In this document: in pieces, positions 29,772 to 63,800 of the stretch
How the letters are laid out: each line of letters starts with the position of its first letter
Numbering within the stretch: position 1 is the stretch's first letter
Sequence record: SRR31156797_212
Length of the DNA stretch: 64,000 nucleotides
Reading direction: 5' to 3' (one strand)
The notes under the pieces: generated by a model
The model's input: the letters and a program-made list of their open reading frames with translations, nothing else
What the model was told of the DNA's origin: nothing
Databases searched by the model: none
Position numbers and translations under genes: made by a program

Positions 29772-30764
29772 TTATAAAGGTTTGATTACTATCTTATCAC
29801 CATCTATCTGATAACTAATAGGTGTAGTATGATTAATTAATTTTAGAACATGCTCAACAGGTTTTGTTCTCTTAATTACGCCAGAATAATGTATATTTTG
29901 GAAAAACTTTTTTGGGTAGATAAATTCAACATCATACCAGCGTTCCACCATTGCCATCAATGTTTCAAAGTCTTCATTATCGAATATATAGCGACCATCG
30001 CGCCATACAGTATAGTAACTCGTTTCTACTTTTTTCAGAGATAACCTATTACTAATCCGACTATAAATCAATTGCTGATTGGGCTCTATAACAACTGTTC
30101 TCCCGGCAGCTTTTACTTCAACACTACCTTCTTCTAATGTTGTGTAAACATTCTCCTCATTTTCGTAGGATCTCACATTAAAAACAGTCCCAAGTACCTT
30201 TAAACTTTGTCCTTTCACATTCACAATAAAAGGTTTTTCCTCATCTCGGCTAACATTAAAAAAAGCTTCACCACTTAAGGTTACAACTCTCTGTTTTTTA
30301 TCATCATCAAACGAAAAATCCAATTTAGAATCAGAATTTAACCATACTTCTGTTCCATCAGCCAAAGCCAGCTTAGATCTTTGTCCTTTTGGCACCTCAA
30401 GTTTATGAACAAGCTGCTTAGGAACATTAAAAGAATCTAAAATCATATTAGAACCCCAACCCAAGCCAAACACTACTATAATTATTGCAGCAATCCTCAT
30501 CCACAAAGTAAAATTCCTCTTTAAGGTAAAGGTTTTTGGTATTTTCATCAGATCAACACGATTGGATAAAACCTTCCATTCTCTCTTTAGATTTATATTT
30601 CCTTTTTCCGAATGCATTTTATAGGAATCCCAGATATCTTTTTGCTGGAAATACTCCTTTTTATTCTCTGCATTTGAATAAATCCAATCGAGAAACTGAA
30701 CCTGTTCTTCTTCACTAAGCTGTCCCTGAAGGAATTGTACTATTTTATCCTTATTATCCATCAT
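29772..30764 (-). CDS. fecR: FecR family anti-sigma factor
   Basis: Single TM (WMRIAAIIIVVFGLG); LADGTEVWLNSDS, LSGEAFFNV, KVLGTVFNV, TLEEGSV; between ECF sigma and susC. Confidence 0.93.
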   Translation of the reverse strand: MMDNKDKIVQFLQGQLSEEEQVQFLDWIYSNAENKKEYFQQKDIWDSYKMHSEKGNINLKREWKVLSNRVDLMKIPKTFTLKRNFTLWMRIAAIIIVVFGLGWGSNMILDSFNVPKQLVHKLEVPKGQRSKLALADGTEVWLNSDSKLDFSFDDDKKQRVVTLSGEAFFNVSRDEEKPFIVNVKGQSLKVLGTVFNVRSYENEENVYTTLEEGSVEVKAAGRTVVIEPNQQLIYSRISNRLSLKKVETSYYTVWRDGRYIFDNEDFETLMAMVERWYDVEFIYPKKFFQNIHYSGVIKRTKPVEHVLKLINHTTPISYQIDGDKIVIKPL

Positions 30765-30934
30765 TAATTATCGGTTACTATACTACATGATCGGAAAAAT
30801 AGATTTTACCCTACCTCCAATTTTTATTTTTTTACATTTTTATAATGTTACAGTAATATAAGGTGGTCAGTTTATTGTATGAATAAATACGAAAGGAGTA
30901 TTTTAAAATCACAACTTAATTTAATCGCATGACC

Positions 30935-31519
30935 TTATAAAAAATCGGATCCATTAAAGTACAAATACATTAAAAGAGGAAGATATTCTTTAAGCTCAAG
31001 CCTAAGAATTTTAAGAGCTTTGGTTATTTGTTTTTCAACTGCTTTTACAGAAATTCCCAACTGTTCTGCAATTTCCTTATTCTTTAAGCCATTAAAACGA
31101 CTCATGATAAACACTCTACGGCAAGCATCTGGCATCTTATCCATAGCTTCTTTCAGTTTTTCTTCTAACTCTAGTTCAATTATACTTTTTATTCCATCGT
31201 TATAATAAGCGAGCTCATCAAGGTTTAATGCTTCTGTGCTATAATTGTTTCTAACTTTTTGTCTCTCGATTTCCTGAAGACATTTGTTACGAACCATTCT
31301 AAAGAGGTAGGCAGATAGAGAGGATTTGATCGTGATGTTTTCTTTGTTCTGCCAAAATATCATAAAAACGTCGTGAACTAAATCTCTTGCCAAATCATCA
31401 TCTACAAATTTACAGGCATAGAAATACATCGAAGTGTAATACTCTTCAAACAATTCTTGAAAAGCATTTTTATCTCCAGCCTTTAGTTTTGTATACAATT
31501 GGTTGTTTAGATCAGTCAT
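30935..31519 (-). CDS. ECF sigma-70 factor (Bacteroidota PUL type)
   Basis: AFQELFEEYY, DLVHDVF, YLFRMVRNKCL (region 2); MPDACRRVFIMSRFNGLKNKEIAEQLGISVKAVEKQI (region 4). Confidence 0.95.
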   Translation of the reverse strand: MTDLNNQLYTKLKAGDKNAFQELFEEYYTSMYFYACKFVDDDLARDLVHDVFMIFWQNKENITIKSSLSAYLFRMVRNKCLQEIERQKVRNNYSTEALNLDELAYYNDGIKSIIELELEEKLKEAMDKMPDACRRVFIMSRFNGLKNKEIAEQLGISVKAVEKQITKALKILRLELKEYLPLLMYLYFNGSDFL

Positions 31520-36394: not shown

Positions 36395-38722
36395 TTAAAA
36401 CGGATTTTCTTCAACTGCTTTTTCCAAGTCTTGTGCCATTGCAACGAATTCATCGGCAGTCATTTCTTTCATGTAAACCAAACCATGAGTAGCTCTTACC
36501 AATGGGTGATTGTTCTCGTAAAAGAAATTCTTACCTAATAACAATTGAATTTGCTTTAATTGTTGAACCCAAACCTTTTGAGTCAACTCATTAAATTTGC
36601 CATCGTACTCGTAACTTGGGAAAGATGCATTTACCTGACTCATGTAACTTTCGGTAAATGAATTTTCCAATACATCTAATGCATTTAATGATACTGGCAC
36701 AATGGTATCGGCTTCAGCTGGATGATACTTAAACCAAACATTACGATAGCCAATAATTCGTAATTTCGATAAATCTTCTTCCTCTTTCCACTCTTTAACA
36801 GCTCCTGCAATTGCTTGCAAAACTTTATAGTGAGTATCAGGACCACTTCCTTCAGGATCCATAGCCAAACTGATAATACTTGGCTTGTGCTTTCTAAATT
36901 CTTCCAAAACAGGAAGCATATCTCTATTCTTCTCAGGTAATTCTGTAAATACATCACCTTTGTAGAATCCAAGACGTAAATGATGAATATTTTTAACCGG
37001 AGTTCCAAAGTGAGCCCAAACTAGCTCTTCTTCAAACTCACGAATCATTCCTTTCATTTTCTGAACCTCAGGAGAATTCTTTCCTCCATCGTAACTACTT
37101 TCCAAATCGTTAATGATAAAAGCAATAGTTTCATTCAGGTGCTCTTTATTTTTAACTTTCCAGGTTTCAACAATAGAACGAATTACACGGTGGCAAAGAC
37201 CCCTTCTCTTTCCATTAGCATTTCTTGCTGCAACAGAATTCAAGAAGTGATAAACATCCTTGTCCCACTTCTTGCTATATCCAATCTCGAAGAAATCAGG
37301 ATACTCCAGCATTTGGATTGCACCATTGGCAATAAACTCCTGACACTCTTTCAATACACCAATAACAAAACCATTGGTTACTGCTGTAAATCCAGAAGTA
37401 AGTACTGAGAAGTGAATATCATTACTTGCCGAACGCATCTGACGATTTGTATAAGGCATCATTCCCAACATGATATCATCGTGGTGAGGTCCTGTATGAT
37501 AAATCACCTCATTGGTATCAGGTTTCATTCCTTTTTCCAGCTTCCCTTTAATAGAATCGATAACTGTTTGAACAGTCCCTTCATTTAAATTTGGAATTTG
37601 GCTAGTATATGGATCGGCTTTTAGATCTTCCATTGTTAAATGGTGACCATACTTATTTATCTTCTTACAAAGATCAATTACAGATCTTTCAGATTTAGCA
37701 TGAGACCAATCTCCTTTTTTGTAAAACTGATCTACACTATCAGTCAACTTGCAAGCTGCACCTGTAGTCAGGTAAAAACGGCTATTTTTCTGACGTTGTA
37801 GAACCGAAGCAGGATAAACCGCATCTGGCTTACTTTCCAATGAACCTTTAACAATATCTGCTTTAGCTTCACCCGCGGCAAATATGATTGAAACAGCATC
37901 CGGATCGTGAGTAATTGTATCTAAACCAATGGTAATCACCAAACGATTTCTTGATACCTCGATACCACCTAAGTCACCAGCGGCAACTGCTTGTGTTTCA
38001 AAATTGGTTTTAGTTAATCGTGTTGTAGAGTAATGATCTGAGCCACGCGTATTAAAGGCAATGTGACCATCAGGTCCAATTCCTCCAAGGAAAAAACCAA
38101 TTCCTCCTTTATCGCGAATCTGCTGTTCGTAAGAAGTACACCAATTGTCAATCATGAAAATTGATTTTTGCTGCATTTCTTCGACAACGCTTGTAGCCTC
38201 GCGATAACGTAGAGACAAATCAATATTGTAATCAGGGAAAACTTCCAAAAAGTGCTTGTTATCCACCAATGGAATTTCCTCTGAATTAATAAGTAATGAA
38301 TTGGATTTCTCCAAGCCAAAACCATCAATGTAGTACTTCATCACATAGTTGTAGAAACTATTGTGCTGACGTGGATCAATTGGGTAAAACTCATCGATCT
38401 GAACAAACTGCAATCCTCTTAAATCTGGTTTAGCCATATTCCCCAATCCGTATTGTCCACGGATATCCATACCTTTGGCATTGTTCCAGTTCTCTAAAAG
38501 ATACTGTGTGTACTTGATAAAATACTCAGGTGTTTTACCTGTTGGCAAACTGATTACCCCCTGAGGATTTTGCTCTGTCCACTCCAAAAATCGAAGTGAA
38601 GTCATTAAACCCAATTTTGGGAAATTATCAACTGTTACATAAGGTATTTGAGTTGTAATTTCCGGCACTCCTGATAAATCATGAAATGCTTGCTCTACTT
38701 TTGATGTAAATAATGTTCCCAT
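36395..38722 (-). CDS. nagB: Glucosamine-6-phosphate deaminase-like domain fused to a PIG-L/LmbE-like deacetylase domain
   Basis: N-terminal half: SLPTGKTP, QIDEFY, LGGIGPDGHIAFN, ITIGL, GEAKA, PASVLQ; C-terminal half: GPHHDDIMLG, R..E, GPDTH. Confidence 0.8.
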   Translation of the reverse strand: MGTLFTSKVEQAFHDLSGVPEITTQIPYVTVDNFPKLGLMTSLRFLEWTEQNPQGVISLPTGKTPEYFIKYTQYLLENWNNAKGMDIRGQYGLGNMAKPDLRGLQFVQIDEFYPIDPRQHNSFYNYVMKYYIDGFGLEKSNSLLINSEEIPLVDNKHFLEVFPDYNIDLSLRYREATSVVEEMQQKSIFMIDNWCTSYEQQIRDKGGIGFFLGGIGPDGHIAFNTRGSDHYSTTRLTKTNFETQAVAAGDLGGIEVSRNRLVITIGLDTITHDPDAVSIIFAAGEAKADIVKGSLESKPDAVYPASVLQRQKNSRFYLTTGAACKLTDSVDQFYKKGDWSHAKSERSVIDLCKKINKYGHHLTMEDLKADPYTSQIPNLNEGTVQTVIDSIKGKLEKGMKPDTNEVIYHTGPHHDDIMLGMMPYTNRQMRSASNDIHFSVLTSGFTAVTNGFVIGVLKECQEFIANGAIQMLEYPDFFEIGYSKKWDKDVYHFLNSVAARNANGKRRGLCHRVIRSIVETWKVKNKEHLNETIAFIINDLESSYDGGKNSPEVQKMKGMIREFEEELVWAHFGTPVKNIHHLRLGFYKGDVFTELPEKNRDMLPVLEEFRKHKPSIISLAMDPEGSGPDTHYKVLQAIAGAVKEWKEEEDLSKLRIIGYRNVWFKYHPAEADTIVPVSLNALDVLENSFTESYMSQVNASFPSYEYDGKFNELTQKVWVQQLKQIQLLLGKNFFYENNHPLVRATHGLVYMKEMTADEFVAMAQDLEKAVEENPF

Positions 38723-48495: not shown

Positions 48496-49980
48496 TTAAT
48501 GAACATTCAACTGACCTTTTGAATCTGCTTTTCTTAAATTACGAACACTTGTACTTCCAGCTCCCTTCATACTCAAATCAATCGGTTGATTTGTCTTCCA
48601 AGCTCCTCTGGTAAAATCAGGAATATCAATTGGTCGTGAACCATTGGCAATAGACCACTCACTAAGTGGCGTAATACAACTCCAGGAAGCTGCATCGTAA
48701 ACATCCATATCTACTGGCAATCCATTACGCAAGCAATCGATTAATCTCCAATCCATTACAAAATCCATTCCTCCATGACCTCCAACTTGCTTGGCCATTT
48801 CACCTACTCGACGTATTATTTCCGGAGTGTATTTATCTTCCAGTTCCTTAAATTGAGCCTGATCGATTACATTGTGTCCAAATGCAATGTGTTGCTTAGG
48901 CCATTTTTGTGCAAAACACTTGGTTCCACTCAACATATGAATTCTAGAATATGGGCGAGGAGAACTGATATCATGCTGAATCATAATTGTACGTCCTTTA
49001 TTGGTACGAATCATTTGCATATCCATATTTCCACGCATCTCCCATCCCACAAACTTTTCGAAGAATGGATCCTCTTTTGCCATTTCAGCAATTCTATGTT
49101 TTAAGGTAAAATCATCGGACATCATGGATGTTAGGTAATCCATTTTATCACCTCTATTGATATCCATTGCCTGGCAAATTGGTCCTAATCCATGAGTTGG
49201 ATATACATTTGCTTTACGTTTGTTTTCATGTAAACGCCACATTTTTGTGTAAGCACCATCACTCATTTTATCATCTTTTGGCTTATTAAAGTGCCAGTAA
49301 TCCAAATCGTGAATGTAAGCACCTTCGCCATGTATCAAATCTCCAAATGCTCCTTGCTGTGCCATGCTAATGGTCAACATTTCAAAAAAGTCATAACAAC
49401 AATTTTCCAAAATCACACAATGCTTTTTGGTTCGCTCCGACGTTTCAACCATTTGCCAGCATTCGTCCATGGTTTTTGCTGTAGATACTTCAACAGCGGT
49501 ATGCTTTTCACCTTCCATTGCTGCAATAGCAACAGGAACATGCCATTCCCATGGAGTAGCAATGTACACCAAATCAACATCTCCACTATCACAAAGTGCT
49601 TTAAAGCCCTTATCACCATCTACATATTCTTTGGCCTTTGGTAAACCTGCATCAGATAATATTTTCTGAGCTCCATCAACTGCCGCCTGACGAATATCAC
49701 AAACAGCTGTAATTTCAACTCCCTCAATATAAGTCATTCGTTTTACTGCACCAGAACCCCGATCACCAATACCAACAAAACCAACTCTTACGGTATCCAA
49801 TTTTGGAGCAGCATAACCACACATATTAAAGTTCATTTTAGGCTGCTTTTCAGCATTCTTCTTAATGTATGATAACTTACTTTCTTCTTTCGATTCTGCA
49901 CATGATGCTAAAGGTGCAGCTGCAAGTACTCCTGCTCCAAGGGCAAGATTACTTAAAAATGATCTTCTGTTTGTTGCCAT
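48496..49980 (-). CDS. GH109 NAD+-dependent alpha-N-acetylgalactosaminidase, Tat-exported lipoprotein
   Basis: Tat motif NRRSFL and LASC; VGIGDRG Rossmann; ATPWEWH, LENCCY, YPTHG, catalytic GGHGGMD. Confidence 0.9.
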   Translation of the reverse strand: MATNRRSFLSNLALGAGVLAAAPLASCAESKEESKLSYIKKNAEKQPKMNFNMCGYAAPKLDTVRVGFVGIGDRGSGAVKRMTYIEGVEITAVCDIRQAAVDGAQKILSDAGLPKAKEYVDGDKGFKALCDSGDVDLVYIATPWEWHVPVAIAAMEGEKHTAVEVSTAKTMDECWQMVETSERTKKHCVILENCCYDFFEMLTISMAQQGAFGDLIHGEGAYIHDLDYWHFNKPKDDKMSDGAYTKMWRLHENKRKANVYPTHGLGPICQAMDINRGDKMDYLTSMMSDDFTLKHRIAEMAKEDPFFEKFVGWEMRGNMDMQMIRTNKGRTIMIQHDISSPRPYSRIHMLSGTKCFAQKWPKQHIAFGHNVIDQAQFKELEDKYTPEIIRRVGEMAKQVGGHGGMDFVMDWRLIDCLRNGLPVDMDVYDAASWSCITPLSEWSIANGSRPIDIPDFTRGAWKTNQPIDLSMKGAGSTSVRNLRKADSKGQLNVH

Positions 49981-50193: not shown

Positions 50194-51525
50194 TTAGGGC
50201 AAGGTTGAGAAATCTATAATTGGTTGTGTTTGTGTTTTCTCTCTTGTATATTCTGTATCATAAGGAACTCTTTCATTAAAGAATCCACAATTCTTCAAAT
50301 AAAACTTCCCATTTTCAACTCCTCCTGCATAATCTCTTCTGGCATCTTTTCTTGCCGTTGCATCAGCTGTAAATTTTACTCCTGTTAACTCATGCCAATT
50401 TTCATTAGTATCAACAAGCCATTGGTTGCTGTAATAGGCTTTTCGACTAATCGTGCCCATTCCTGTAATAAAGTTCTCTAAAAAGGAATGAGGTCTTGTA
50501 ATATAAGTTGTGGTTTTTGGTCTTCTGAAACTGGCAATTAGTTCCCATTTGTTCTTTTCTGGCGCATAAAAATATGCTGTATAGTCTGTAGAATTGTTTT
50601 CTGATGGATGACCTTTTAAAAGGAATTTATAAGTACTACCAGCCTTCCAATTGTATATCTTATAACTTTGTCCTCCGGAACCTTCGTTACCAAACTCTCC
50701 TGTATTAACACTTTCACCCTTTTTAAGCAACTTGATTTTATCTTCATCTGGAATACTATTAGGATCATCCGTTTGATATGGACTCCAAACTGAAAATAAA
50801 ATTCTTCTTTCTGATGTTGAATTCACCTGAATTCCAAAATACCCTTCTCCAAATCCATTCGCCATAAAATAAGATCCAACAACATCTTCCCCATCAGGAA
50901 CTGTAATTTCGTTGTAAAACCATTCTACATCTCCAATACTTTCCGGCACCTGATAGCCTAAATGTACCGATGGACCTCTTCTTCCCCAGTAAAAATCATC
51001 CTTCACGTAAAACACATCACCACCTGTAACATCTCCTCCTATAAGGATATGACTCAATTCACCAAAGTCGTTCCCTGACTTATCCAAACCTTTCACATCA
51101 ATATAATAGTATCCTGGTTCTTCAATAGTATAGGTTCCTACATCAATTGTTGAAAAGGATGAAGCGTTAAGTTTGACTTCAGTAGATTCCGATCCAAATG
51201 TAAAACGAACAGTAGATTCATCTGAACTCTGTTTGGCTTTTGCACCTATATGAAGAGTTCCCGTTTTTTCAATTCGAAACCAGGTTCTAATAACAGCTTT
51301 TTCATCGGTCCAATTTTTAACCGCATCATCAGTAATCATACTTTTATTCAATTTAGCATCGTTTACTATCCATGAATTTCCGCCCATTGGCACTGATATT
51401 GAATATTGAATCGGATCAACCTTCTCATCTTCATTATCTGAATCTTTACTGCAACTGCATGATACTATTAAAAGTATTGTTACAAATGCGAACAATAATG
51501 ATATTTGGGTATATATTTTACTCAC
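50194..51525 (-). CDS. DUF5077/DUF3472-like surface lipoprotein of unknown function
   Basis: Lipobox VSCSC then SKDSDNEDE; YWGRRGPSVHL, YFMANGFGEGYFGIQVNS, FSVWSP, FGNEGSGGQS, SFLENF recognised as DUF3472-type; GTG start. Confidence 0.75.
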   Translation of the reverse strand: MSKIYTQISLLFAFVTILLIVSCSCSKDSDNEDEKVDPIQYSISVPMGGNSWIVNDAKLNKSMITDDAVKNWTDEKAVIRTWFRIEKTGTLHIGAKAKQSSDESTVRFTFGSESTEVKLNASSFSTIDVGTYTIEEPGYYYIDVKGLDKSGNDFGELSHILIGGDVTGGDVFYVKDDFYWGRRGPSVHLGYQVPESIGDVEWFYNEITVPDGEDVVGSYFMANGFGEGYFGIQVNSTSERRILFSVWSPYQTDDPNSIPDEDKIKLLKKGESVNTGEFGNEGSGGQSYKIYNWKAGSTYKFLLKGHPSENNSTDYTAYFYAPEKNKWELIASFRRPKTTTYITRPHSFLENFITGMGTISRKAYYSNQWLVDTNENWHELTGVKFTADATARKDARRDYAGGVENGKFYLKNCGFFNERVPYDTEYTREKTQTQPIIDFSTLP

Positions 51526-56624: not shown

Positions 56625-56955
56625 AAGACAAGCAAAAAACAAGAATTCTCTTCAATTCAAATAGATCACCCTAAACTCACTAATTACTGACTATCTTACA
56701 CTTAAGGTCATCATCAGCATATTTAATTACTATTAAAACTATTTTTCCATGTCCACTAAGTGTAATTTTTAAGCAAATAGGTGGATATTCTCTGCAAGCC
56801 TTAAATTAACTTAGAAATTAAAAGGTAGTCTTCAATCTTTCGAATTATATTGTAGAGCTTTCAATTAATGTGCTGAAAAAGGAGAATTATAGCTTGACAG
56901 GCTTACTTGCGATATGTATTTTTGAAAATACTTCTGGATTGATAAAAAATTGAAT

Positions 56956-59900
56956 ATGAAAAAATGGTACCGAAATATTGTAAAGTCTGTGCTTTTGGTT
57001 GCAACCAGTTTTTCAACAGTATTTTGCTTCGCCGATGAATCAACGAATTTTATTCATTTAAAAGCGGAAATAAACCGTCAACATACCAATGCCACCAATG
57101 TAATTGAAGATTCTCTTGGCTATTTATGGCTTGAGTCACATGCCGGTTTATTACGATTCGATGGTTATGAATACATGGAGATTCCTTTCTATAGTATTTT
57201 TGATAAAAAAGCTAATCCATCTTCTCTTCTAAGACTAGTAAAAGATAAAAAAGGACATATTTGGGCGGTTTCGAAAAAAGGCAATATATCTAAACAAAAT
57301 CACCACTCAATATTTATCCCTCAATATTCTTGCTTTAACAAATTAAAAGAAGAGCAAGAAATTAAATCCATACATATAGGAAAATCACATCTCTGGTTAG
57401 GAAGTAATTTTGGAGTATTAAAAAGGCAATCACTAACTGATTCAACGAGCGTTGTATTTAATATCCATTCTTCTAATGAGGGAATCACTTCAATTTCAGA
57501 ATGCAAAAACAACACGGTATGGTTCAGTACAGATAAAGGACGAATTTTTAAAATCAACACAAAAACAAATGATTTAGAAGAACTTAAAGGACCTTTCAGT
57601 AATCCTTTTAATACCATTATCTTAACATGTGATAACAATGATAAATTATGGATAGGAACTGAATTGTATGGTTTTTTCTGTTACGATCCTATTAGTCAAA
57701 CCTACCAACAATACCACAATCAAACTGAAGGACTCAATTTTGTTCCTTCAAATATGATTATCAGAATATTTAAAGATAGTAAAGGATTTATTTGGCTTGG
57801 AACTGATGGTGGTGGTTTGTTTAAGGTAAATCCTGATAACAAACAAGTTCAACATTTTAACCATTCAAAGACCAATCAATTATCCTTACAAAGCAAATCG
57901 GTAATTGGAATTGGAGAAACTAATAATCATGATATCTGGATTTTCACCAATTATGGTAATATCAATATTCTTCCTCATGAATCCAATACTGTAGGTTATC
58001 ACAGTGGAAGTATTTCCGGATCTCCTACTAGAATTCTATCAGTTCTAAAAGCAAAAAATGGAAACCTTTGGATTGGAACCGATGGAGAAGGACTTACTCT
58101 TATCGATAAAAATGGCGCTCAAAAAAAGCAATTTATAGCAAAAACAAAAGCTGCAAAAGGATTATCTGGCAATTACATACAAGCTATTACCGAAGATAAA
58201 ACTGGTAATCTTTGGGTCGGCACCTATTTAAATGGCTTAAATTATTACGATCAAAAAAAGAATACTTTCTATCCTATCCAAACGGTGAATCAATCCGGAC
58301 AAAGGGCATCCGATATCCGATCTTTATATGTGGACAACAAAAACAGAATTTGGGTTGGAAGTAACATTGGTTTGTTTGTTTATTCAACCAATAAGGTACA
58401 ATTAGCCTTTTTTCCATATAACAAACAAGATTTGCAAGGAACGATAGCAGAATTCTTTTTGGAAGATGAATTGGGACAATTTTGGATCGGGATGTATAGT
58501 GGAGGAATCTGTTTATTCGATGAAGCTGATAAACTGCAAAATTCCCGATTTACAACTTACAAACTATCTACCTCCAACAACAATAACAAAAGCAGTTTAA
58601 TTCATGGTTCTTCGGATCAAGCTGGTCATTTATATTTGGTGAATTCTTATTCCAAACTATTAAAATTTGATATTAAGCGCAGAGAAGTTCTTCCTATTAA
58701 AGGATTTACAAATAGCCAACTACACAAAACAGTTGCTGTTATTTCTATCGATTCGTCTAATCTCTGGCTTTCTAAAAGCAATGGAATATCTCACTTGGAT
58801 TTGAATACAAAAAAAGACTATTTCTACACTTGGAAAAATGGAACCATTAAAGGAAGTTACCTGTCAGGAAGTTCATTTATCGATGAAAATGGAATACTTT
58901 ACTTTGGTGGTATTGGTGGCTTGAATTATTTCAATCCACATGAAATGAAAACAACCAAAAAAGATTTACATCTATACATTAATCAATTGCAAATCGTAAA
59001 CCGAGATGCGAACGACTTAATTCCTACTCAATTAAAATCTGGTATTGAGCATTTAAAACACTTAAAGTTAAATCACCATCAAACCGCATTTTCCTTTCAG
59101 TTTGCTGTTATCAACGATCATTTGGATCCAAATTATTACTATGCTTATCGTTTAAAAGGATTCGATAACAATTGGATTACAACAGAAAACAAAAGAAGTG
59201 CAACCTATACCAATATTCCTTATGGCGATTACACCTTTGAGGTAAAAGCAGGAACCAAACGAGATCTTTGGGACATTAGAACAAAATCAGTAGAAATAAG
59301 CATTATACCACCCTTTTGGAAAAGATGGTGGGCATATTTAATATATACAACTCTATTTTTGATAATAAGTTTCTTTATCATTAGATACTATCTAATGTGG
59401 GCAAGATTGAAGCACAAATTGGTAATCGAGGAACTTCTGAATGAGAAAAACAAGGAGCTTTATGCTATGAAAATGAATTTCTTTGCAAAAATGTCACATG
59501 AAATTCAGACTCCACTCACACTTATTCTTTCACCTATTGAAAACATGATTGAACGCGCAGAAGGTAACCTTTTGCTTACACAACGCCTACATGTAATTAA
59601 GAATAATGCAAAACGATTGTCTAGAATTGCGATGGAATTAATGACCATTAGAAATCGGGAAATGGGCAGGCTACGTATCAATGCCAGTGAAAACAATATT
59701 ATATCGGATATTAATAAAATAGCTCTTTCGTTTAGAGAACAAGCGCGATTTAAGAATGTAGATTTTATTGTAGAAAACAACAATATAAACGAATTAAATC
59801 TATGGTATGATCAGCAAAAACTAGAACATATCATTTACAATTTACTAGCCAATGCATTTAAATTCACACCCAAAGAAGGAAAAATAACATTAAGCATAGA

Positions 59901-61047
59901 ACCAAAACGTACTGACAATATAGTAGAATTAAAAATTACCGATACTGGTATCGGAATTCCCAATGATGAATTGCAAAATATTTTCAATCTGTTTTATCAA
60001 TCGAAAGATGGAAAAGCCGTTGGTGGTACAGGAATTGGTTTGGCTCTCACAAAAGAGTTAATTCAACTGCACAAAGGTGAAATAACTGTTGATTCAAAAA
60101 TTACTGAAGGCACCACCTTCACAATAACCCTACAATCAGGCAAAGAACATTTTAGCTCTGAGGAAATAATAAATACTGAATTAAAGCCAAAAAAAGAGGA
60201 TAAAACCTATACACTTCCTCAATCTAACAATGATGAAGTTTCAATATCTAAGGATGATAAAGAATACAGAAATATTTTAATTGTTGAAGACAACTTCGAA
60301 ATGCTACTATTTCTGGAAGATAGTTTCAAATCTGAATACAAGGTGAGAACCGCTCAAAATGGTCATGAAGCCTTAGAAGTTATTTCTGAATTTACACCGG
60401 ATATAATTCTCAGCGATGTAATGATGCCAATGATGGATGGCATAACACTTTGCAAAAAGCTTAAGGAACAAAAAACTACACGTCATATTCCTCTTATTTT
60501 ATTAACAACCAAAAATGCAACCAGCTCAAAACTGGAAGGACTTAAATATGGTGCCATAGAATACATCAACAAGCCTTTTAATGTAAAAGAGCTAAAACTT
60601 AAAGTATTTAATATTCTAGATACTCAAAATAAGATGATTGAAAAATATCGAACCGAGATATTAACTGAGAGTAAGGAAATACAAGTTGAATCACCTGACG
60701 AAAAATTTATTGAATCGGTTATACTTGAAATGGAGAAGAATTTTGAAGATCCAGAATTTAAACTCGAAGAGTTAGCCGATATGCTTAACATGAGTTATTC
60801 AAATATCTACAGAAAATTCCAAAGTCTTACGGATAAAACATTGGTTGATTTTATGCGATCCTTTCGATTAAAAAAAGCTGAATCATTACTTATCAATCAC
60901 AATTTTTCCATTTCCGAAATTGCCTATCAAATTGGATTTAACGATCCAAAGTATTTCTCAAAATGTTTCAAAAAGGAATATGGAATGACACCTAAGCAAT
61001 ACAAACAGGAAAAACAGTTCATCGCCAAAGACAATCCTATCGATTAA
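56956..61047 (+). CDS. Hybrid two-component system (propeller sensor, Y_Y_Y, TM, His kinase, receiver, AraC HTH)
   Basis: Repeated WIGTDG propellers; ATYTNIPYGDYTFEV; PPFWKRWWAY; SHEIQTPLTLI; NLLANAFKFT; GTGIGLAL; ILIVEDN...SDVMMP; GFNDPKYFSKCFKKEYG; ATG 56956 or TTG 56950. Confidence 0.96.
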   Translation: MKKWYRNIVKSVLLVATSFSTVFCFADESTNFIHLKAEINRQHTNATNVIEDSLGYLWLESHAGLLRFDGYEYMEIPFYSIFDKKANPSSLLRLVKDKKGHIWAVSKKGNISKQNHHSIFIPQYSCFNKLKEEQEIKSIHIGKSHLWLGSNFGVLKRQSLTDSTSVVFNIHSSNEGITSISECKNNTVWFSTDKGRIFKINTKTNDLEELKGPFSNPFNTIILTCDNNDKLWIGTELYGFFCYDPISQTYQQYHNQTEGLNFVPSNMIIRIFKDSKGFIWLGTDGGGLFKVNPDNKQVQHFNHSKTNQLSLQSKSVIGIGETNNHDIWIFTNYGNINILPHESNTVGYHSGSISGSPTRILSVLKAKNGNLWIGTDGEGLTLIDKNGAQKKQFIAKTKAAKGLSGNYIQAITEDKTGNLWVGTYLNGLNYYDQKKNTFYPIQTVNQSGQRASDIRSLYVDNKNRIWVGSNIGLFVYSTNKVQLAFFPYNKQDLQGTIAEFFLEDELGQFWIGMYSGGICLFDEADKLQNSRFTTYKLSTSNNNNKSSLIHGSSDQAGHLYLVNSYSKLLKFDIKRREVLPIKGFTNSQLHKTVAVISIDSSNLWLSKSNGISHLDLNTKKDYFYTWKNGTIKGSYLSGSSFIDENGILYFGGIGGLNYFNPHEMKTTKKDLHLYINQLQIVNRDANDLIPTQLKSGIEHLKHLKLNHHQTAFSFQFAVINDHLDPNYYYAYRLKGFDNNWITTENKRSATYTNIPYGDYTFEVKAGTKRDLWDIRTKSVEISIIPPFWKRWWAYLIYTTLFLIISFFIIRYYLMWARLKHKLVIEELLNEKNKELYAMKMNFFAKMSHEIQTPLTLILSPIENMIERAEGNLLLTQRLHVIKNNAKRLSRIAMELMTIRNREMGRLRINASENNIISDINKIALSFREQARFKNVDFIVENNNINELNLWYDQQKLEHIIYNLLANAFKFTPKEGKITLSIEPKRTDNIVELKITDTGIGIPNDELQNIFNLFYQSKDGKAVGGTGIGLALTKELIQLHKGEITVDSKITEGTTFTITLQSGKEHFSSEEIINTELKPKKEDKTYTLPQSNNDEVSISKDDKEYRNILIVEDNFEMLLFLEDSFKSEYKVRTAQNGHEALEVISEFTPDIILSDVMMPMMDGITLCKKLKEQKTTRHIPLILLTTKNATSSKLEGLKYGAIEYINKPFNVKELKLKVFNILDTQNKMIEKYRTEILTESKEIQVESPDEKFIESVILEMEKNFEDPEFKLEELADMLNMSYSNIYRKFQSLTDKTLVDFMRSFRLKKAESLLINHNFSISEIAYQIGFNDPKYFSKCFKKEYGMTPKQYKQEKQFIAKDNPID

Positions 61048-62435
61048 TGAAAGTATTCTTCCAACGAAATAAATTTCTAGTATTCATACTCGCAGTATTA
61101 TTTTTTGCGATTGCATTTGTTGCAAGTATAAAAGGTATTGATCGAGTAACTTCAACTGATAGCTATTGTATGTCCTGCCATGTTCATCCGCATGCAGAAA
61201 GCACATGGAAGCAAGCTTCGCATCACAACAATAAAAGTGGAGTTGTTGTTCATTGTATCGATTGTCACTTACCTCCAAAACATCAGAATAACTATTGGTC
61301 TGAGAAAATAAATGCAGGTTCTCGCGATTTATATTCTTATTGGTTTAAAGATCCTAATCAAATTAATTGGGATCAAAAATCAGAACTTGAACATGCAAAA
61401 AAGCACGTTTTTAACGAATCATGTATCAATTGTCATGAAAATCTCTTTTCTCTTCATCTTTCCAAAGAAGGTGATGAAGCACATTTGTATTACAAACACA
61501 ATCAAGATAAATTGGATTGTATAAATTGTCACTTAAATGTTGGTCACGGAGGCAAAAATACTCACAAAGCCAATCCTTCTTTTTTACTAGCTAATAAGCA
61601 GAACGAAATATTCAAAAATGCCAGCAAAGTAGATGAATTTTCAAGTTTTAAAGAACAGATTCCTGGTACCGATGTTTCTTTTGAGATGATTGCAATTCCT
61701 ACTCATAAAGACTTTGATTCGTTCTTTATTGGCAAAACAGAAATATCATGGAATGAATACAAGGTCTTTCTATCTGAAACCGAATCGGAAGGTAGAGCTG
61801 ATGATATAAAACCAGAAGTAGATGTAATATCAGGAGCAACTCCTCCATTTGGTGATCCCTCTCAAGGTTGGGGAATGGGAGAAAGACCAGCAATTACAAT
61901 GACCTGGCATGCAGCCAACACCTATTGCAAATGGTTATCGGCTAAAACCGGAAAAAAATACAGGCTTCCTACAAAAGAAGAATGGATATATGCATGTAAT
62001 GGTGAATCACCTGATGATTTCTTTTTTGGTGGACAAGTTAAAGATTATCAAGCTAAAAAATTCCCATCGAATCTTTTCAAAAAACCTAGTGTGAAGATCA
62101 ATAATTTTGTTGTTTGGAGTGAAATTAGCAATGGTAAAACAGCTTTACCAAAAAATGTTCATGGCAACTCATTTGGCTTACTAAACATGCTTGGGAATGT
62201 AAAAGAATTCTGTTCGGATACCATTTTAATAGATAATAAAACAGAGCACATAATTATGGGTGGTTCGTTTAAAAGTGAACTTACAGGTTTATTGCTTACA
62301 AAAATTGATCATACTAAACATGATGATTGGTTGATCACCGATCCTCAAATTCCTAAAAGCATTTGGTGGTACTCCGATTGCAATGATGTTGGATTTAGAG
62401 TCGTTTGCGAATTCAATAAAGTTCCTGAAAATTAA
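61047..62435 (+). CDS. Membrane-anchored NapC/NirT-type tetraheme cytochrome c fused to an FGE/SUMF1-like domain
   Basis: N-terminal TM then TST..YCMSCH, CIDCH, CINCH, CINCH (4 CxxCH); C-terminal FFIGKTEIS, W..A..YCKWLS.KTGKKYRLPT.EEW.YAC, FGL.NMLGNV.E, GGSF, VGFRVV; ATG overlaps the HTCS stop (TAATG). Confidence 0.85.
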   Translation: MKVFFQRNKFLVFILAVLFFAIAFVASIKGIDRVTSTDSYCMSCHVHPHAESTWKQASHHNNKSGVVVHCIDCHLPPKHQNNYWSEKINAGSRDLYSYWFKDPNQINWDQKSELEHAKKHVFNESCINCHENLFSLHLSKEGDEAHLYYKHNQDKLDCINCHLNVGHGGKNTHKANPSFLLANKQNEIFKNASKVDEFSSFKEQIPGTDVSFEMIAIPTHKDFDSFFIGKTEISWNEYKVFLSETESEGRADDIKPEVDVISGATPPFGDPSQGWGMGERPAITMTWHAANTYCKWLSAKTGKKYRLPTKEEWIYACNGESPDDFFFGGQVKDYQAKKFPSNLFKKPSVKINNFVVWSEISNGKTALPKNVHGNSFGLLNMLGNVKEFCSDTILIDNKTEHIIMGGSFKSELTGLLLTKIDHTKHDDWLITDPQIPKSIWWYSDCNDVGFRVVCEFNKVPEN

Positions 62436-62453
62436 TACCTATTGTTATATCAG

Positions 62454-63800
62454 ATGAATAAAGATTATTACAACAGCAGAAGAAAATTTATAAAGAATAC
62501 AGCAGCAGCTGGTCTCATTGGTGCAATAGGCGCCAATGCTCTTTTTTCCTCATGTCAAAATAGTAAAAAACAAGATTACACTTTTCCTCCCATGTTGAAA
62601 AAAGCTCCTGACGGTTCACTTTTAAAAGCTGGTGTTGTAGGCTGTGGCTATCGGGGAACAGGAGCTGCAATAAATTTTTTGAATTCTGGTCCAAATGTTG
62701 AAATCTCCGCCCTTGCTGATGTTTTTCCTGATCGTGTTGAAGCTTGTCGAAAACAAATTAAAGAACAAAAAGATCTTGATATTTCTCCTGATAAATGTTT
62801 CTCGGGAATTAACTCATTCGAAAAATTAATGGAATGTGATTTAGATGTAGTAATTCTGGCAACTCCACCACATTTTCGTCCTCAACATTTCGAAGCCTGC
62901 GTTAAAGCAAAAAAGCATGTCTTCATGGAGAAACCAATTGCTGTAGATCCTGTTGGTGTTCGCTCAGTTATGGTTTCAGCTGAAAAAGCAAAAATGCTTG
63001 GTCTGTCGGTGGTAACAGGAACCATCAAACGTCATCAGCAAGATTACATCGAAACCTTTAAGCAGGTAAACAATGGTGCCATTGGAGATATTGTATCTGC
63101 AAATAGCTATTACAATGTTGGAAAATTATGGCATCGAAATCCACGTGCCGATTGGTCGGAATTGGAAAATATGATTCGCAATTGGGTAAATTGGTGCTGG
63201 CTTTCCGGAGATCATATTGTAGAACAACATGTCCACAATTTAGATACCGTAAATTGGTTCGTTGGAAAACATCCCGAAAAAGCGCTTGGTTTTGGTGCTC
63301 GTCAAAGAAGAATTACTGGTGATCAATACGATATGTTTAGTGTTGATTTTGTCTACGATAAAAACATTCATTATCACAGTATGTGTCGTCAAATTAACGA
63401 TTGTTCCAACATTGTTTCCGATAGAATTCAAGGAACCAAAGGAACTACAAATTGTGAAAATACCATTTATAAACTTGATGGATCCATTGACTGGACCTAC
63501 AAATATCCTAAAGAAGGAACAGGTAAAAACATTAGTCGCTTAGCAAATAATCCATACGATCAGGAACATATTGATTTGGTAACGGCTATTCGAACTAGCA
63601 AACCTATAAACGAAGCTTTTCAAATTGCAGAATCAACACTAACCGGAATAATGGGTAGAATCTCAGCCTATACAGGAAAAGAAGTGACTTGGGAAGAAAT
63701 GATGAATTCCGATTTGTACTTAGGTCCCAAAACCTATCCAATTGGTCCTGTTGACATTCCTAAAGATATTCCAAAGCCAGGTAAAGCTCCTACCAAATAA
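62454..63800 (+). CDS. Gfo/Idh/MocA family NAD(P)-dependent oxidoreductase, Tat-exported lipoprotein
   Basis: SRRKFIK Tat motif and FSSC lipobox; GVVGCGYRGTG; LATPPHFRP; EKP; WLSGDHIVEQHVHNLD; ATG 62454 preferred over TTG 62442. Confidence 0.92.
   Translation: MNKDYYNSRRKFIKNTAAAGLIGAIGANALFSSCQNSKKQDYTFPPMLKKAPDGSLLKAGVVGCGYRGTGAAINFLNSGPNVEISALADVFPDRVEACRKQIKEQKDLDISPDKCFSGINSFEKLMECDLDVVILATPPHFRPQHFEACVKAKKHVFMEKPIAVDPVGVRSVMVSAEKAKMLGLSVVTGTIKRHQQDYIETFKQVNNGAIGDIVSANSYYNVGKLWHRNPRADWSELENMIRNWVNWCWLSGDHIVEQHVHNLDTVNWFVGKHPEKALGFGARQRRITGDQYDMFSVDFVYDKNIHYHSMCRQINDCSNIVSDRIQGTKGTTNCENTIYKLDGSIDWTYKYPKEGTGKNISRLANNPYDQEHIDLVTAIRTSKPINEAFQIAESTLTGIMGRISAYTGKEVTWEEMMNSDLYLGPKTYPIGPVDIPKDIPKPGKAPTK

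Follow-up and report, generated by a model that had tools for sequence, protein, structure and literature searches.

Many bacteria export dehydrogenases of the Gfo/Idh/MocA family to the periplasm, which has no free NAD(P) pool. In the excerpts of PMC8121099 drawn on here, periplasmic recycling of the cofactor is known only for glucose-fructose oxidoreductase and is guessed for 3-keto-glycoside enzymes of Bacteroides, and two sets of Gfo/Idh/MocA proteins exported by twin-arginine translocation (Tat), namely the Zymomonas glucose-fructose oxidoreductase and the glycoside 3-dehydrogenases BT2158/BT2159 of B. thetaiotaomicron, are thought to keep NAD(P) tightly bound in the periplasm. The same excerpts describe enzymes of the LacABC or glucoside 3-dehydrogenase type, in which electrons from periplasmic sugar oxidation reach the respiratory chain by way of a flavin and a cytochrome. 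The subject of the present analysis is a pair of genes at the right end of a 64,000-nucleotide stretch of DNA from sequence record SRR31156797_212 (this whole stretch is called the window). The first gene encodes a tetrahaem cytochrome of the NapC/NirT family fused to a domain with the fold of formylglycine-generating enzyme (FGE), and the second encodes a Tat-exported Gfo/Idh/MocA lipoprotein. The interpretation preferred here, by a narrow balance of probability, is that the pair conducts electrons from a substrate through bound NAD(P)H, a covalent FMN and four haems to menaquinone.

The dehydrogenase resembles the Zymomonas glucose-fructose oxidoreductase and BT2158/BT2159 in being a Tat-exported member of the same family, but whereas their cofactor is proposed to be recycled by reduction of a second sugar, the window pair encodes a cytochrome partner. 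The LacABC type is a functional analogue that uses a GMC-type FAD subunit and a separate cytochrome c, in contrast to the window pair, in which the dehydrogenase would be NAD(P)-dependent and the flavin, if present, would sit on an FGE fold fused to the NapC/NirT cytochrome. The cytochrome half is like NrfH, CymA and NapC in its N-terminal membrane helix, its four CxxCH motifs and its quinol-site lysine, but it continues into a C-terminal FGE-fold domain of about 270 residues, and its haem 1 motif is CxxCHxH rather than the CxxCHxM of NrfH. The context also differs from that of NrfH and NapC, in that the Nrf, Nap and Tor reductases are absent nearby, the partner is a dehydrogenase of NAD(P) type, and electrons probably flow toward the quinone. 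TorC and DorC, NapC/NirT cytochromes whose additional C-terminal domain touches the partner enzyme, share a design principle with the fusion: a tetrahaem quinone-pool module joined to a C-terminal domain that serves a single periplasmic partner. In TorC this additional domain is a monohaem cytochrome, in the fusion it is an FGE fold without haem, and TorC models score about 53 bits on the fusion against cut-offs of 455-478.

The FGE-like domain itself is closest, among proteins in the PDB and by both sequence and fold, to PvdO of P. aeruginosa (5hha), 2y3c and PorK/GldK, which are also periplasmic FGE-fold proteins without the FGE catalytic cysteines. Identity is only 18-20%, with TM-scores of 0.56-0.58, and none of these proteins has the DPQIPKS...WW segment, the flavinylation-type loop, the cytochrome fusion or the Gfo partner described below. 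The ApbE-flavinylated carriers NqrC, RnfG, NosR, PplA, DUF2271 and DUF3570 are comparable in being exported and in their redox context, and the window protein contains the exact motif; it differs from known ApbE substrates in having an FGE/C-type-lectin-like fold in place of FMN_bind, and its flavinylation is putative. The pair has counterparts in three kinds of system that are already known: periplasmic dehydrogenases linked to quinones, NapC/NirT cytochromes extended by a partner domain, and carriers flavinylated by ApbE. New here are the apbE linkage of unfused relatives, a complex prediction that passed its test and defines an interface, and the subfamily-specific conservation of that interface; neither the fusion nor the unfused pair was found described in full-text searches of the literature.

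Architecture of the pair

The features of the two genes are as follows.

61047..62435, + strand: fusion protein, 462 aa, consisting of a membrane anchor, a tetrahaem NapC/NirT module, a flexible linker and an FGE-like domain
61074..61133, + strand: N-terminal transmembrane helix, about residues 10-29, with K2, R7 and K9 before it (hydrophobic stretch in the translation)
61167..61187, + strand: haem 1, CMSCH with His47 (CxxCHxH), beginning at C41
61254..61268, + strand: haem 2, CIDCH, beginning at C70
61305..61328, + strand: Lys87-Asp94, putative quinone-site residues (alignment to NrfH)
61422..61436, + strand: haem 3, CINCH, beginning at C126
61518..61532, + strand: haem 4, CINCH, beginning at C158
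61638..62411, + strand: FGE-fold domain, about residues 198-455, without the FGE catalytic Cys pair (Pfam, AlphaFold2, Foldseek)
61821..61841, + strand: DVISGAT, residues 259-265, ApbE-type motif (exact match), with Thr265 as the putative FMN site
62340..62360, + strand: DPQIPKS, residues 432-438, start of the subfamily-specific C-terminal segment and core of the predicted interface
62454..63800, + strand: Tat-exported Gfo/Idh/MocA lipoprotein, 448 aa, an NAD(P)-dependent dehydrogenase by family (Pfam, NCBIfam)
62640..62669, + strand: dinucleotide-binding loop G63-A72 (GCGYRGTGAA) of the dehydrogenase, of which residues 66-73 are predicted to contact the FGE-like domain

The fusion matches Pfam Cytochrom_NNT (PF03264) over residues 10-167 (9.3e-24, 84.5 bits against a cut-off of 24.1) and falls below the NCBIfam equivalog cut-offs for NrfH (80.9 versus 134.2), napC_nirT (47.2 versus 310.6) and TorC (53.7 versus 478.2); by these profiles it is a member of the NapC/NirT family according to Pfam and not an NrfH, NapC or TorC equivalog according to NCBIfam. 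The full-length AlphaFold2 (AF2) model has a helix at residues 9-35, and by analogy with the family the N-terminus would lie inside and the globular part in the periplasm. Four CxxCH motifs are present in 200 of the 201 family members used for motif counts, His is at position 47 in 197 of the 201, and His47 is invariant in alignments of 21 and 64 members. The nearest solved relative of the cytochrome half is NrfH of D. vulgaris (2j7a_C, E 1e-3), in the alignment to which Lys87 corresponds to Lys82, Asp94 to Asp89 and His47 to Met49, the last of which is the unusual haem-1 ligand of NrfH. Both Lys87 and Asp94 are invariant in the alignments of 21 and 64 family members. According to excerpts of PMC2762525, Lys82 of NrfH is the equivalent of Lys91 of CymA and holds the quinol analogue HOQNO (2-heptyl-4-hydroxyquinoline N-oxide), and in CymA the K91Q replacement abolishes quinol-dependent function. 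Because this quinol-site lysine is kept as Lys87, the tetrahaem module appears, as far as its sequence goes, competent for electron exchange with the quinone pool. Exchange with menaquinone had been proposed in a preliminary description of the window, and the retained lysine agrees with it; a quinone-linked periplasmic dehydrogenase seems the best reading of the pair.

The second protein of the pair matches PF01408 (3.6e-15), PF22725 and PF02894, all above the Pfam cut-offs. Its Tat signal, which scores 21.3 bits on TIGR01409 (cut-off 16.7), includes an SRRKF motif, and Cys34 forms a lipobox; R9, R10, F12 and C34 are invariant in 64 orthologues, and so are the GxGxxG motif (G63-G68) and the EKP motif (E159-K160-P161). 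Both subunits are thus membrane-anchored by sequence, the fusion by its transmembrane helix and the dehydrogenase by its lipobox cysteine. The parallel that the preliminary description drew with the BT2156-BT2160 locus holds at the level of superfamily and theme and fails at the level of orthology: the dehydrogenase scores 25.9 against the cut-off of 750 for BT_2158_fam and 19.7 against 650 for BT_2159_fam, and because these scores are so far under the cut-offs it is, by this measure, not an orthologue of BT2158 or BT2159. A second type of Gfo protein, encoded two genes downstream of the fusion in some loci (the '+2' paralogue, as distinct from the '+1' gene directly downstream), scores 144 against the BT_2158_fam cut-off of 750 in the example from locus L004, and both types lie far under all of the NCBIfam equivalog cut-offs compared (iolG, BT_2158_fam and BT_2159_fam). 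BT2160 is not a cytochrome-SUMF1 protein; PMC8121099 describes it as a SusR-family regulator.

An FGE fold without the FGE catalytic cysteines

Residues 217-392 of the fusion match Pfam FGE-sulfatase (PF03781; 1.6e-22, 80.9 bits against a cut-off of 23.3), and the AF2 model of the domain alone, built with 64 sequences, has a predicted local distance difference test (pLDDT) score of 82.9 and a predicted template modelling (pTM) score of 0.85. The best Foldseek matches of this model are variable protein 1 of T. denticola (2y3c), PvdO (5hha), ToxD and CarF, followed by true FGEs, EgtB/OvsA and PorK, with the FGE structures matched at E about 1e-6. PDB titles among the fold matches name the FGE mutants C336S and C341S, and the catalytic, copper-binding Cys pair that comes shortly after the GGS motif of FGE is Cys336/Cys341 in the human enzyme. 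At this place the window reads GGSFKSELTGLLL (GGSFKSELTG), with no cysteine, and the Cys pair is likewise missing from the aligned members in the alignments of 21 and 64; nor do the alignments of the FGE-like domain contain a conserved His cluster able to bind iron or copper. Because the catalytic Cys pair is missing, the domain is, on the evidence of these residues, not a sulfatase maturase, whatever the names that databases give to relatives of the fusion ('NapC/NirT family cytochrome c', 'SUMF1/EgtB/PvdO family nonheme iron enzyme' and 'sulfatase modifying factor 1').

Two invariant features distinguish the subfamily to which the domain belongs. One is the loop D-[AG]-[IV]-[ST]-G-[AP]-T-P-P, which contains the flavinylation-type motif, and the other is the C-terminal segment DPQ[IM]PKS.WWYSD. 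The DPQIPKS sequence is invariant in three family alignments (A1, A2 and A4) and is also found in unfused relatives.

Predicted complex of the FGE-like domain and the dehydrogenase

Complex prediction was carried out with residues 186-462 of the fusion and residues 40-448 of the dehydrogenase, NAD and FMN included. Each of three runs gave an interaction prediction score from aligned errors (ipSAE) of 0.76, compared with 0.00 for the highest-scoring of three controls; the runs share at least 86% of their contacts, and the pLDDT of the partners is 84 or higher. In calibration, 51 of 78 solved complexes and 2 of 108 mismatched pairs attained the pass mark, counts that hold roughly for the present case since the calibration set was without small molecules. 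No PDB entry is common to the sequence relatives of both proteins, and therefore recall of a solved complex is unlikely.

From the FGE-like domain, the predicted interface takes in Thr265-Asp270, residues 433-436 within DPQIPKS, and residues 443-447, the contacts of lowest expected error being those of residues 433-436. On the side of the dehydrogenase it involves residues 66-73, just past the GxG of the dinucleotide-binding loop, together with residues 222-229 and 355-368. Six positions of the dehydrogenase in this interface (R67, G68, G70, A71, W226 and Y368) do not vary among the Gfo partners of the fused (64 sequences) and unfused forms (29 sequences) and are replaced in 25 '+2' paralogues, while on the FGE-like side DPQIPKS and Thr265-Pro are invariant in the family alignments. 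This subfamily-specific conservation matches the pattern to be expected of a specific interface as modelled. Binding of the FGE-like domain to the dehydrogenase, which the preliminary description had put forward as docking, is supported by the prediction.

A putative flavinylation motif

An earlier reading of the locus, in which the FGE-like domain simply docks the dehydrogenase onto the cytochrome, left the step from hydride to haem open: NAD(P)H gives a hydride and haems take single electrons, so that a two-electron/one-electron converter is needed. The motif in the FGE-like domain and the apbE linkage of its unfused relatives suggest that covalent FMN fills this gap. The flavinylation motif recognised by ApbE is D-x-x-[S/T]-G-A-[S/T], as given in excerpts of PMC12052999, and DVISGAT of the fusion matches it exactly. 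The strict pattern, with either Ala (106 members) or Pro (87 members) before the Thr, occurs in 193 of the 201 family members, and seven of the remaining eight keep D-x-x-[S/T]-[G/R]-[A/P]-T; the canonical motif is rare among the other open reading frames (ORFs) of the same loci, where it is present in 3 of 998. Thr265 falls within the predicted interface with the dehydrogenase, and if the topology of the family applies, the motif Thr would be on the exported part of the protein and so in the periplasm.

Term look-ups found no mention of the family in the main text of the flavinylation survey PMC8238504, whose supplementary tables could list PF03781 as a domain associated with ApbE, or of the 2024 preprint 10.1101/2024.03.13.584918. 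A survey anchored on apbE clusters would miss the fused loci, because these carry no apbE.

Unfused relatives

A profile of the FGE-like domain was run against 201 genomes from the class and 401 from the phylum. The fused form was found in only three of these genomes (G002, G036 and G561), and single-domain relatives with the DPQIPKS segment in at least 21 of the 401, the unfused form being several times commoner than the fusion among these sampled Bacteroidota genomes. The unfused proteins (314-416 aa as reported frames, 279-353 aa as re-called in the loci) have an N-terminal hydrophobic leader and no CxxCH motif, and they carry an extra conserved C-terminal tail of about 25 residues. In 28 of the 31 unfused loci that were examined (L087-L097 and L100-L119), the FGE-like gene lies directly beside a Gfo gene of the same clade (321-574 bits against the '+1' profile), and 16 loci also contain a gene for a TIM-barrel protein. 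An apbE gene is present in 10 of the 31 loci, directly flanking the pair in eight or nine of them, and the gene orders number at least six; the five apbE products that were tested score 230-266 bits against Pfam ApbE. Scaling the genomic frequency of ApbE (10 matches in 26.4 Mb) to the combined length of the loci (about 0.44 Mb) gives a chance expectation of about 0.2 such genes, and the observed excess is therefore about 50-fold. A frequent unfused operon consists of FGE-like, Gfo, ApbE and Tat-exported TIM-barrel genes. The attachment position is Ser or Thr in all 31 unfused proteins.

Cytochromes of other kinds were seen in several unfused loci. In locus L093, a 217-aa Tll0287-like protein (PF11845) with a single CxxCH motif is encoded at 6262-6915, directly upstream of the FGE-like gene and overlapping it, and in L111 a 218-aa single-CxxCH ORF of similar appearance (6258-6914), also directly upstream, ends 17 nt before the FGE-like gene; each of these two proteins could be an electron acceptor. 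A large cytochrome-c-containing protein is encoded in locus L088. Loci L100 (6917-14858) and L101 (6857-14846) encode an FGE-like lipoprotein without a Gfo neighbour, followed by a 180-aa protein, ApbE (L100 only), a two-CxxCH protein of about 780 aa and a protein of about 485 aa that has a Tat signal, an arrangement which suggests that the FGE-like carrier can serve other redox partners.

Distribution and neighbourhood of the fused form

A protein search returned 5513 relatives of the fusion at E 1e-3 or better, and because the best 120 of these all carry both PF03264 and PF03781, the architecture is, on domain content, far from a chance fusion. Some entries among the best 120 domain relatives were listed as 'FGE-only', and these are not unfused forms but truncated gene calls: of seven that were examined, six retain part of the cytochrome module and the seventh begins in the linker. 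Genuinely unfused forms came only from the genome searches described above. Relatives of the fusion occur in at least 592 species genomes (one genome per species, counting confirmed stretches among the matches listed). Most carriers among the matches listed are metagenome-assembled genomes (MAGs) of Bacteroidales and Marinilabiliales type, and the record titles among them include Alistipes hominis, Tannerella and two further MAGs, one of Calditrichia and one labelled Deferribacteres; Alistipes is represented among the fused loci by L066 and Tannerella by L063, L072 and L079.

Gene neighbourhoods were compared in 80 fetched fused loci and the window (81 loci, of which 1079 ORF proteins were clustered). 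One cluster of Gfo/Idh/MocA proteins is encoded directly downstream of the fusion and on the same strand in 67 of the 78 loci that have a downstream ORF, the other three loci ending within 600 bp of the fusion. Anywhere in the locus, a Gfo protein of the same cluster is found in 72 of the 81, and in a 73rd as a fragment at the end of a contig. In a tree of 103 members of the Gfo cluster, the 67 '+1' genes fall in one 70-tip clade, and the 25 '+2' paralogues lie outside it; in the loci of the three extra tips, another gene is inserted between the fusion and the Gfo gene. A second Tat-exported Gfo protein is encoded at the +2 position in 27 loci, two of these being Gfo proteins of the '+1' clade displaced by insertion. 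The conservation of the fusion and its tie to one Gfo clade bear out what the preliminary description would have required of a functional pair.

Other recurrent neighbours of the fusion are a Tat-exported xylose-isomerase-like TIM barrel, in 22 loci, and a ThuA-like lipoprotein, in 20 loci; none of the ten annotated neighbour clusters of the fused loci is a sulfatase. Of the neighbours that the preliminary description had singled out for a check, the Gfo protein and the TIM barrel thus recur, and ApbE does not. Two conserved upstream clusters, cluster 17 (MsrAB), which is directly upstream in 10 loci, and cluster 21 (fumarate hydratase), probably reflect shared synteny of related genomes and were not used. 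Coupling of the pair to a regulator of a polysaccharide utilization locus (PUL), which had been suggested from the window, did not generalise: a hybrid two-component system (HTCS) regulator is directly upstream on the same strand in only 3 of the 81 loci, which are the window and two loci of Labilibaculum (L001, with an 8-nt overlap, and L002, with a 7-nt gap). Because it is confined to these three loci, the link to a PUL regulator is a local, lineage-specific arrangement and not a property of the system. As for the idea that the cytochrome resets the cofactor of NAD-dependent glycosidases such as the GH109 enzyme encoded in the window, nothing was found that points to it.

Genome G002 has two copies of the fusion about 100 kb apart (C1:1746292-1747242 and C1:1850983-1851930), each with its own Gfo gene (loci L099 and L004).

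Proposed mechanism and alternatives

The computed results are the domain architecture, the missing FGE cysteines, the pairing of the genes, the conservation of the motif, the complex prediction and the apbE linkage of the unfused form, and from these we infer flavinylation, retention of the cofactor, the direction of electron flow and the class of substrate. Together the two proteins would make up a periplasmic dehydrogenase of two subunits, tethered to the membrane and supplying electrons to the menaquinone pool. The Tat pathway would export the Gfo lipoprotein folded around tightly bound NAD(P), and the enzyme would oxidise a sugar-type substrate. The FGE-like domain, having lost the chemistry of FGE, would dock over the dinucleotide-binding side of the dehydrogenase, and ApbE would attach FMN covalently to Thr265 on a flexible loop. 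This FMN would take the hydride from bound NAD(P)H and pass single electrons to the four c-type haems, and the NapC/NirT module would reduce menaquinone at the membrane surface, at a site including Lys87.

A broader proposal is made more tentatively, at slightly less than an even chance: that the FGE fold constitutes a new class of ApbE-flavinylated carriers whose tethered FMN re-oxidises the tightly bound NAD(P)H of Tat-exported Gfo proteins, connected in the fused form (at least 592 species) through NapC/NirT to menaquinone, and in the unfused form to separate cytochromes, with a dedicated ApbE that recognises T-R-P-[T/S]. Such carriers would be a general bacterial answer to the lack of a free pool. 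If the mechanism is true, a flavin-haem partner would explain periplasmic regeneration of NAD(P) for a large clade of Gfo/Idh/MocA proteins. It would also be a new route by which glycan-degrading Bacteroidota, including the gut genera Alistipes and Tannerella, gain respiratory energy from sugars before uptake, and it would give the FGE fold a new function and widen the range of substrates and motifs of ApbE.

Several observations weigh against the proposed electron path. The motif loop is modelled at low confidence (pLDDT about 53 in the AF2 model of the domain), as would be compatible with a flexible arm. Pro replaces the canonical Ala in 87 of the 193 motif-bearing members of the fused family, and its acceptance by ApbE is putative. 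In the unfused form the motif is mostly D-A-[IV]-T-R-P-[T/S], with the canonical form in one locus only; T-R-P-[T/S] departs from the published motif, and here too acceptance by ApbE is putative. No apbE was found among the 1079 ORFs of the 81 fused loci. All five of five fusion-carrying genomes have ApbE genes, yet these are more than 290 kb from the fusion; the ApbE search was also positive in a control genome of Bacteroides thetaiotaomicron, and ApbE is common in this group anyway, serving other substrates. The apbE genes near the unfused pair could serve another protein of those operons. The score of the complex is the model's own confidence, and neighbouring genes sometimes pass, as 7 of 44 did in a trial of the tool itself. 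The AF2 model of the full-length protein, built with 21 sequences, is poor (pLDDT 59). Finally, NapC/NirT proteins usually oxidise quinol, thermodynamic reasoning being the sole ground for the direction of flow adopted here. Of the two kinds of motif, the canonical one, carried by the fused form, may be able to use a housekeeping ApbE, and the non-canonical one may depend on an ApbE dedicated to it.

The alternative that survives best keeps the same complex and the same direction of flow and dispenses with the covalent flavin: the FGE-like domain would be a docking adaptor, and electrons would leave the dehydrogenase through a non-covalent flavin, a diffusible mediator or a Gfo cofactor other than NAD(P). 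The docking itself is supported by the complex prediction, the FGE fold is a non-enzymatic scaffold elsewhere (PorK/GldK and PvdO), and the lack of apbE in the 81 fused loci, the Pro-for-Ala replacements and the non-canonical motif of the unfused form all fit such an adaptor. However, it leaves the transfer from hydride to haem unexplained, and it accounts neither for the invariant Asp, Gly and Thr of a motif on a flexible interface loop nor for the excess of apbE beside unfused pairs; it is considered unlikely.

Still less probable is a flow in the reverse direction, in which the NapC/NirT module would oxidise menaquinol, as NrfH, CymA and NapC do, and the Gfo protein, supplied through the FGE-like domain, would be a periplasmic reductase of a keto-sugar or another carbonyl compound. 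Characterised NapC/NirT proteins are mostly quinol dehydrogenases, according to excerpts of PMC2762525. The Gfo/Idh/MocA family includes ketoreductases, and the PDB matches include a 'sugar 3-ketoreductase' (3rbv). Against this, transfer from menaquinol to NAD(P)+ would be strongly uphill on textbook midpoint potentials (about -74 mV for menaquinol and about -320 mV for NAD(P)+), and the recurrent neighbours of the pair (the xylose-isomerase-like TIM barrel, ThuA and the second Tat-exported Gfo protein) resemble oxidative sugar pathways.

Slightly less plausible again is that the FGE-like domain is itself catalytic, oxidising a small periplasmic molecule, in line with the annotation of PvdO, or modifying a residue of the Gfo protein or of some other protein, with the haems as an electron sink, and that the Gfo protein is a neighbour in the pathway or a substrate. 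PvdO, which NCBIfam names 'dihydropyoverdine dehydrogenase', is the best PDB match by sequence and among the best by fold, and enzymes with the FGE fold carry out varied oxidative chemistry (FGE, EgtB and OvoA); but the domain has no invariant His and no Cys pair for a copper or iron site, its scores against the PvdO, EgtB and OvoA models are far under the cut-offs, and its invariant segments coincide with the predicted contact surface between the two proteins, not with a pocket. An ordinary FGE that matures sulfatases and is incidentally fused to a cytochrome, an outcome that the preliminary description had allowed for, is not borne out and has a negligible probability: it is favoured by the Pfam FGE-sulfatase match and by database names such as 'sulfatase modifying factor 1' only, whereas the catalytic Cys pair is missing from the window protein and from every aligned member, and no sulfatase is encoded among the 33 ORFs of the window or the annotated conserved neighbour clusters.

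Gene block and other features of the window

The right end of the window is arranged on the + strand as HTCS regulator, cytochrome-FGE fusion and Gfo/Idh/MocA gene, nearly without spacers. Two further genes were named above.

56950..61047, + strand: HTCS regulator (Pfam Reg_prop, Y_Y_Y, HisKA, HATPase_c, Response_reg and HTH_18)
48496-49980, - strand: GH109 gene, in the PUL divergent from the HTCS regulator

The ATG of the fusion overlaps the stop codon of the HTCS regulator by 1 nt (TAATG at 61044-61049), and 18 nt separate the stop codon of the fusion from the ATG of the Gfo gene at 62454 on the same strand. A scan of the window for promoters and terminators, by a method that does not cover Bacteroidota promoters, gave 23 promoter-like sites (33.8 expected) and 6 terminator-like sites (4.5 expected), none of them above chance; the operon structure therefore rests on the 1-nt overlap and the 18-nt spacing. 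A Pfam search of all 33 ORFs of at least 150 aa in the window found no sulfatase and no Nap, Nrf, Nir or Tor reductase. What the preliminary description had reported from the letters of the locus was right in every particular: the membrane anchor, the four CxxCH motifs, the FGE fold, the TAATG overlap, the Tat-exported Gfo protein within 20 nt, and the lack of sulfatase and reductase genes.

Short contigs in two marine-sediment RNA libraries match the Gfo gene at 62482-62658 and 63265-63530, with two differences each; two more pieces from these libraries match the same gene with 15 and 19 differences, and one run of uncertain type covers 61679-62027. As such libraries may contain DNA, and their contigs show neither strand nor level, these matches are no more than a hint that the pair is expressed.

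The window as a whole contains three PULs, with SusC/SusD pairs accompanied by glycoside hydrolases (GH) of families GH3, GH97, GH92 (three genes), GH20, GH2 and GH109. The PUL divergent from the HTCS regulator has a gene for a DUF5077/DUF3472 protein (50194-51525, - strand) placed between its SusD and GH109 genes. A 948-aa protein encoded at 12059-14905 (+ strand), divergently from the GH3/GH97 PUL, has Y_Y_Y as its sole Pfam match at E 1e-5 or better and resembles an HTCS-type sensor without recognisable kinase, receiver or AraC parts. No Pfam domain matches, at E 1e-5 or better, a 775-aa protein (36395-38722, - strand) whose gene is flanked by those of an APH-type kinase and a CBM9-like protein. 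Two genes of the BSP-family 'peptidase of plants and bacteria' (PF04450; 18075-19205 and 23999-24757, - strand) are interleaved with the three GH92 genes, in a PUL that is controlled by an extracytoplasmic function (ECF) sigma factor and a FecR anti-sigma factor (29772-31519) and the SusC of which has an STN domain.

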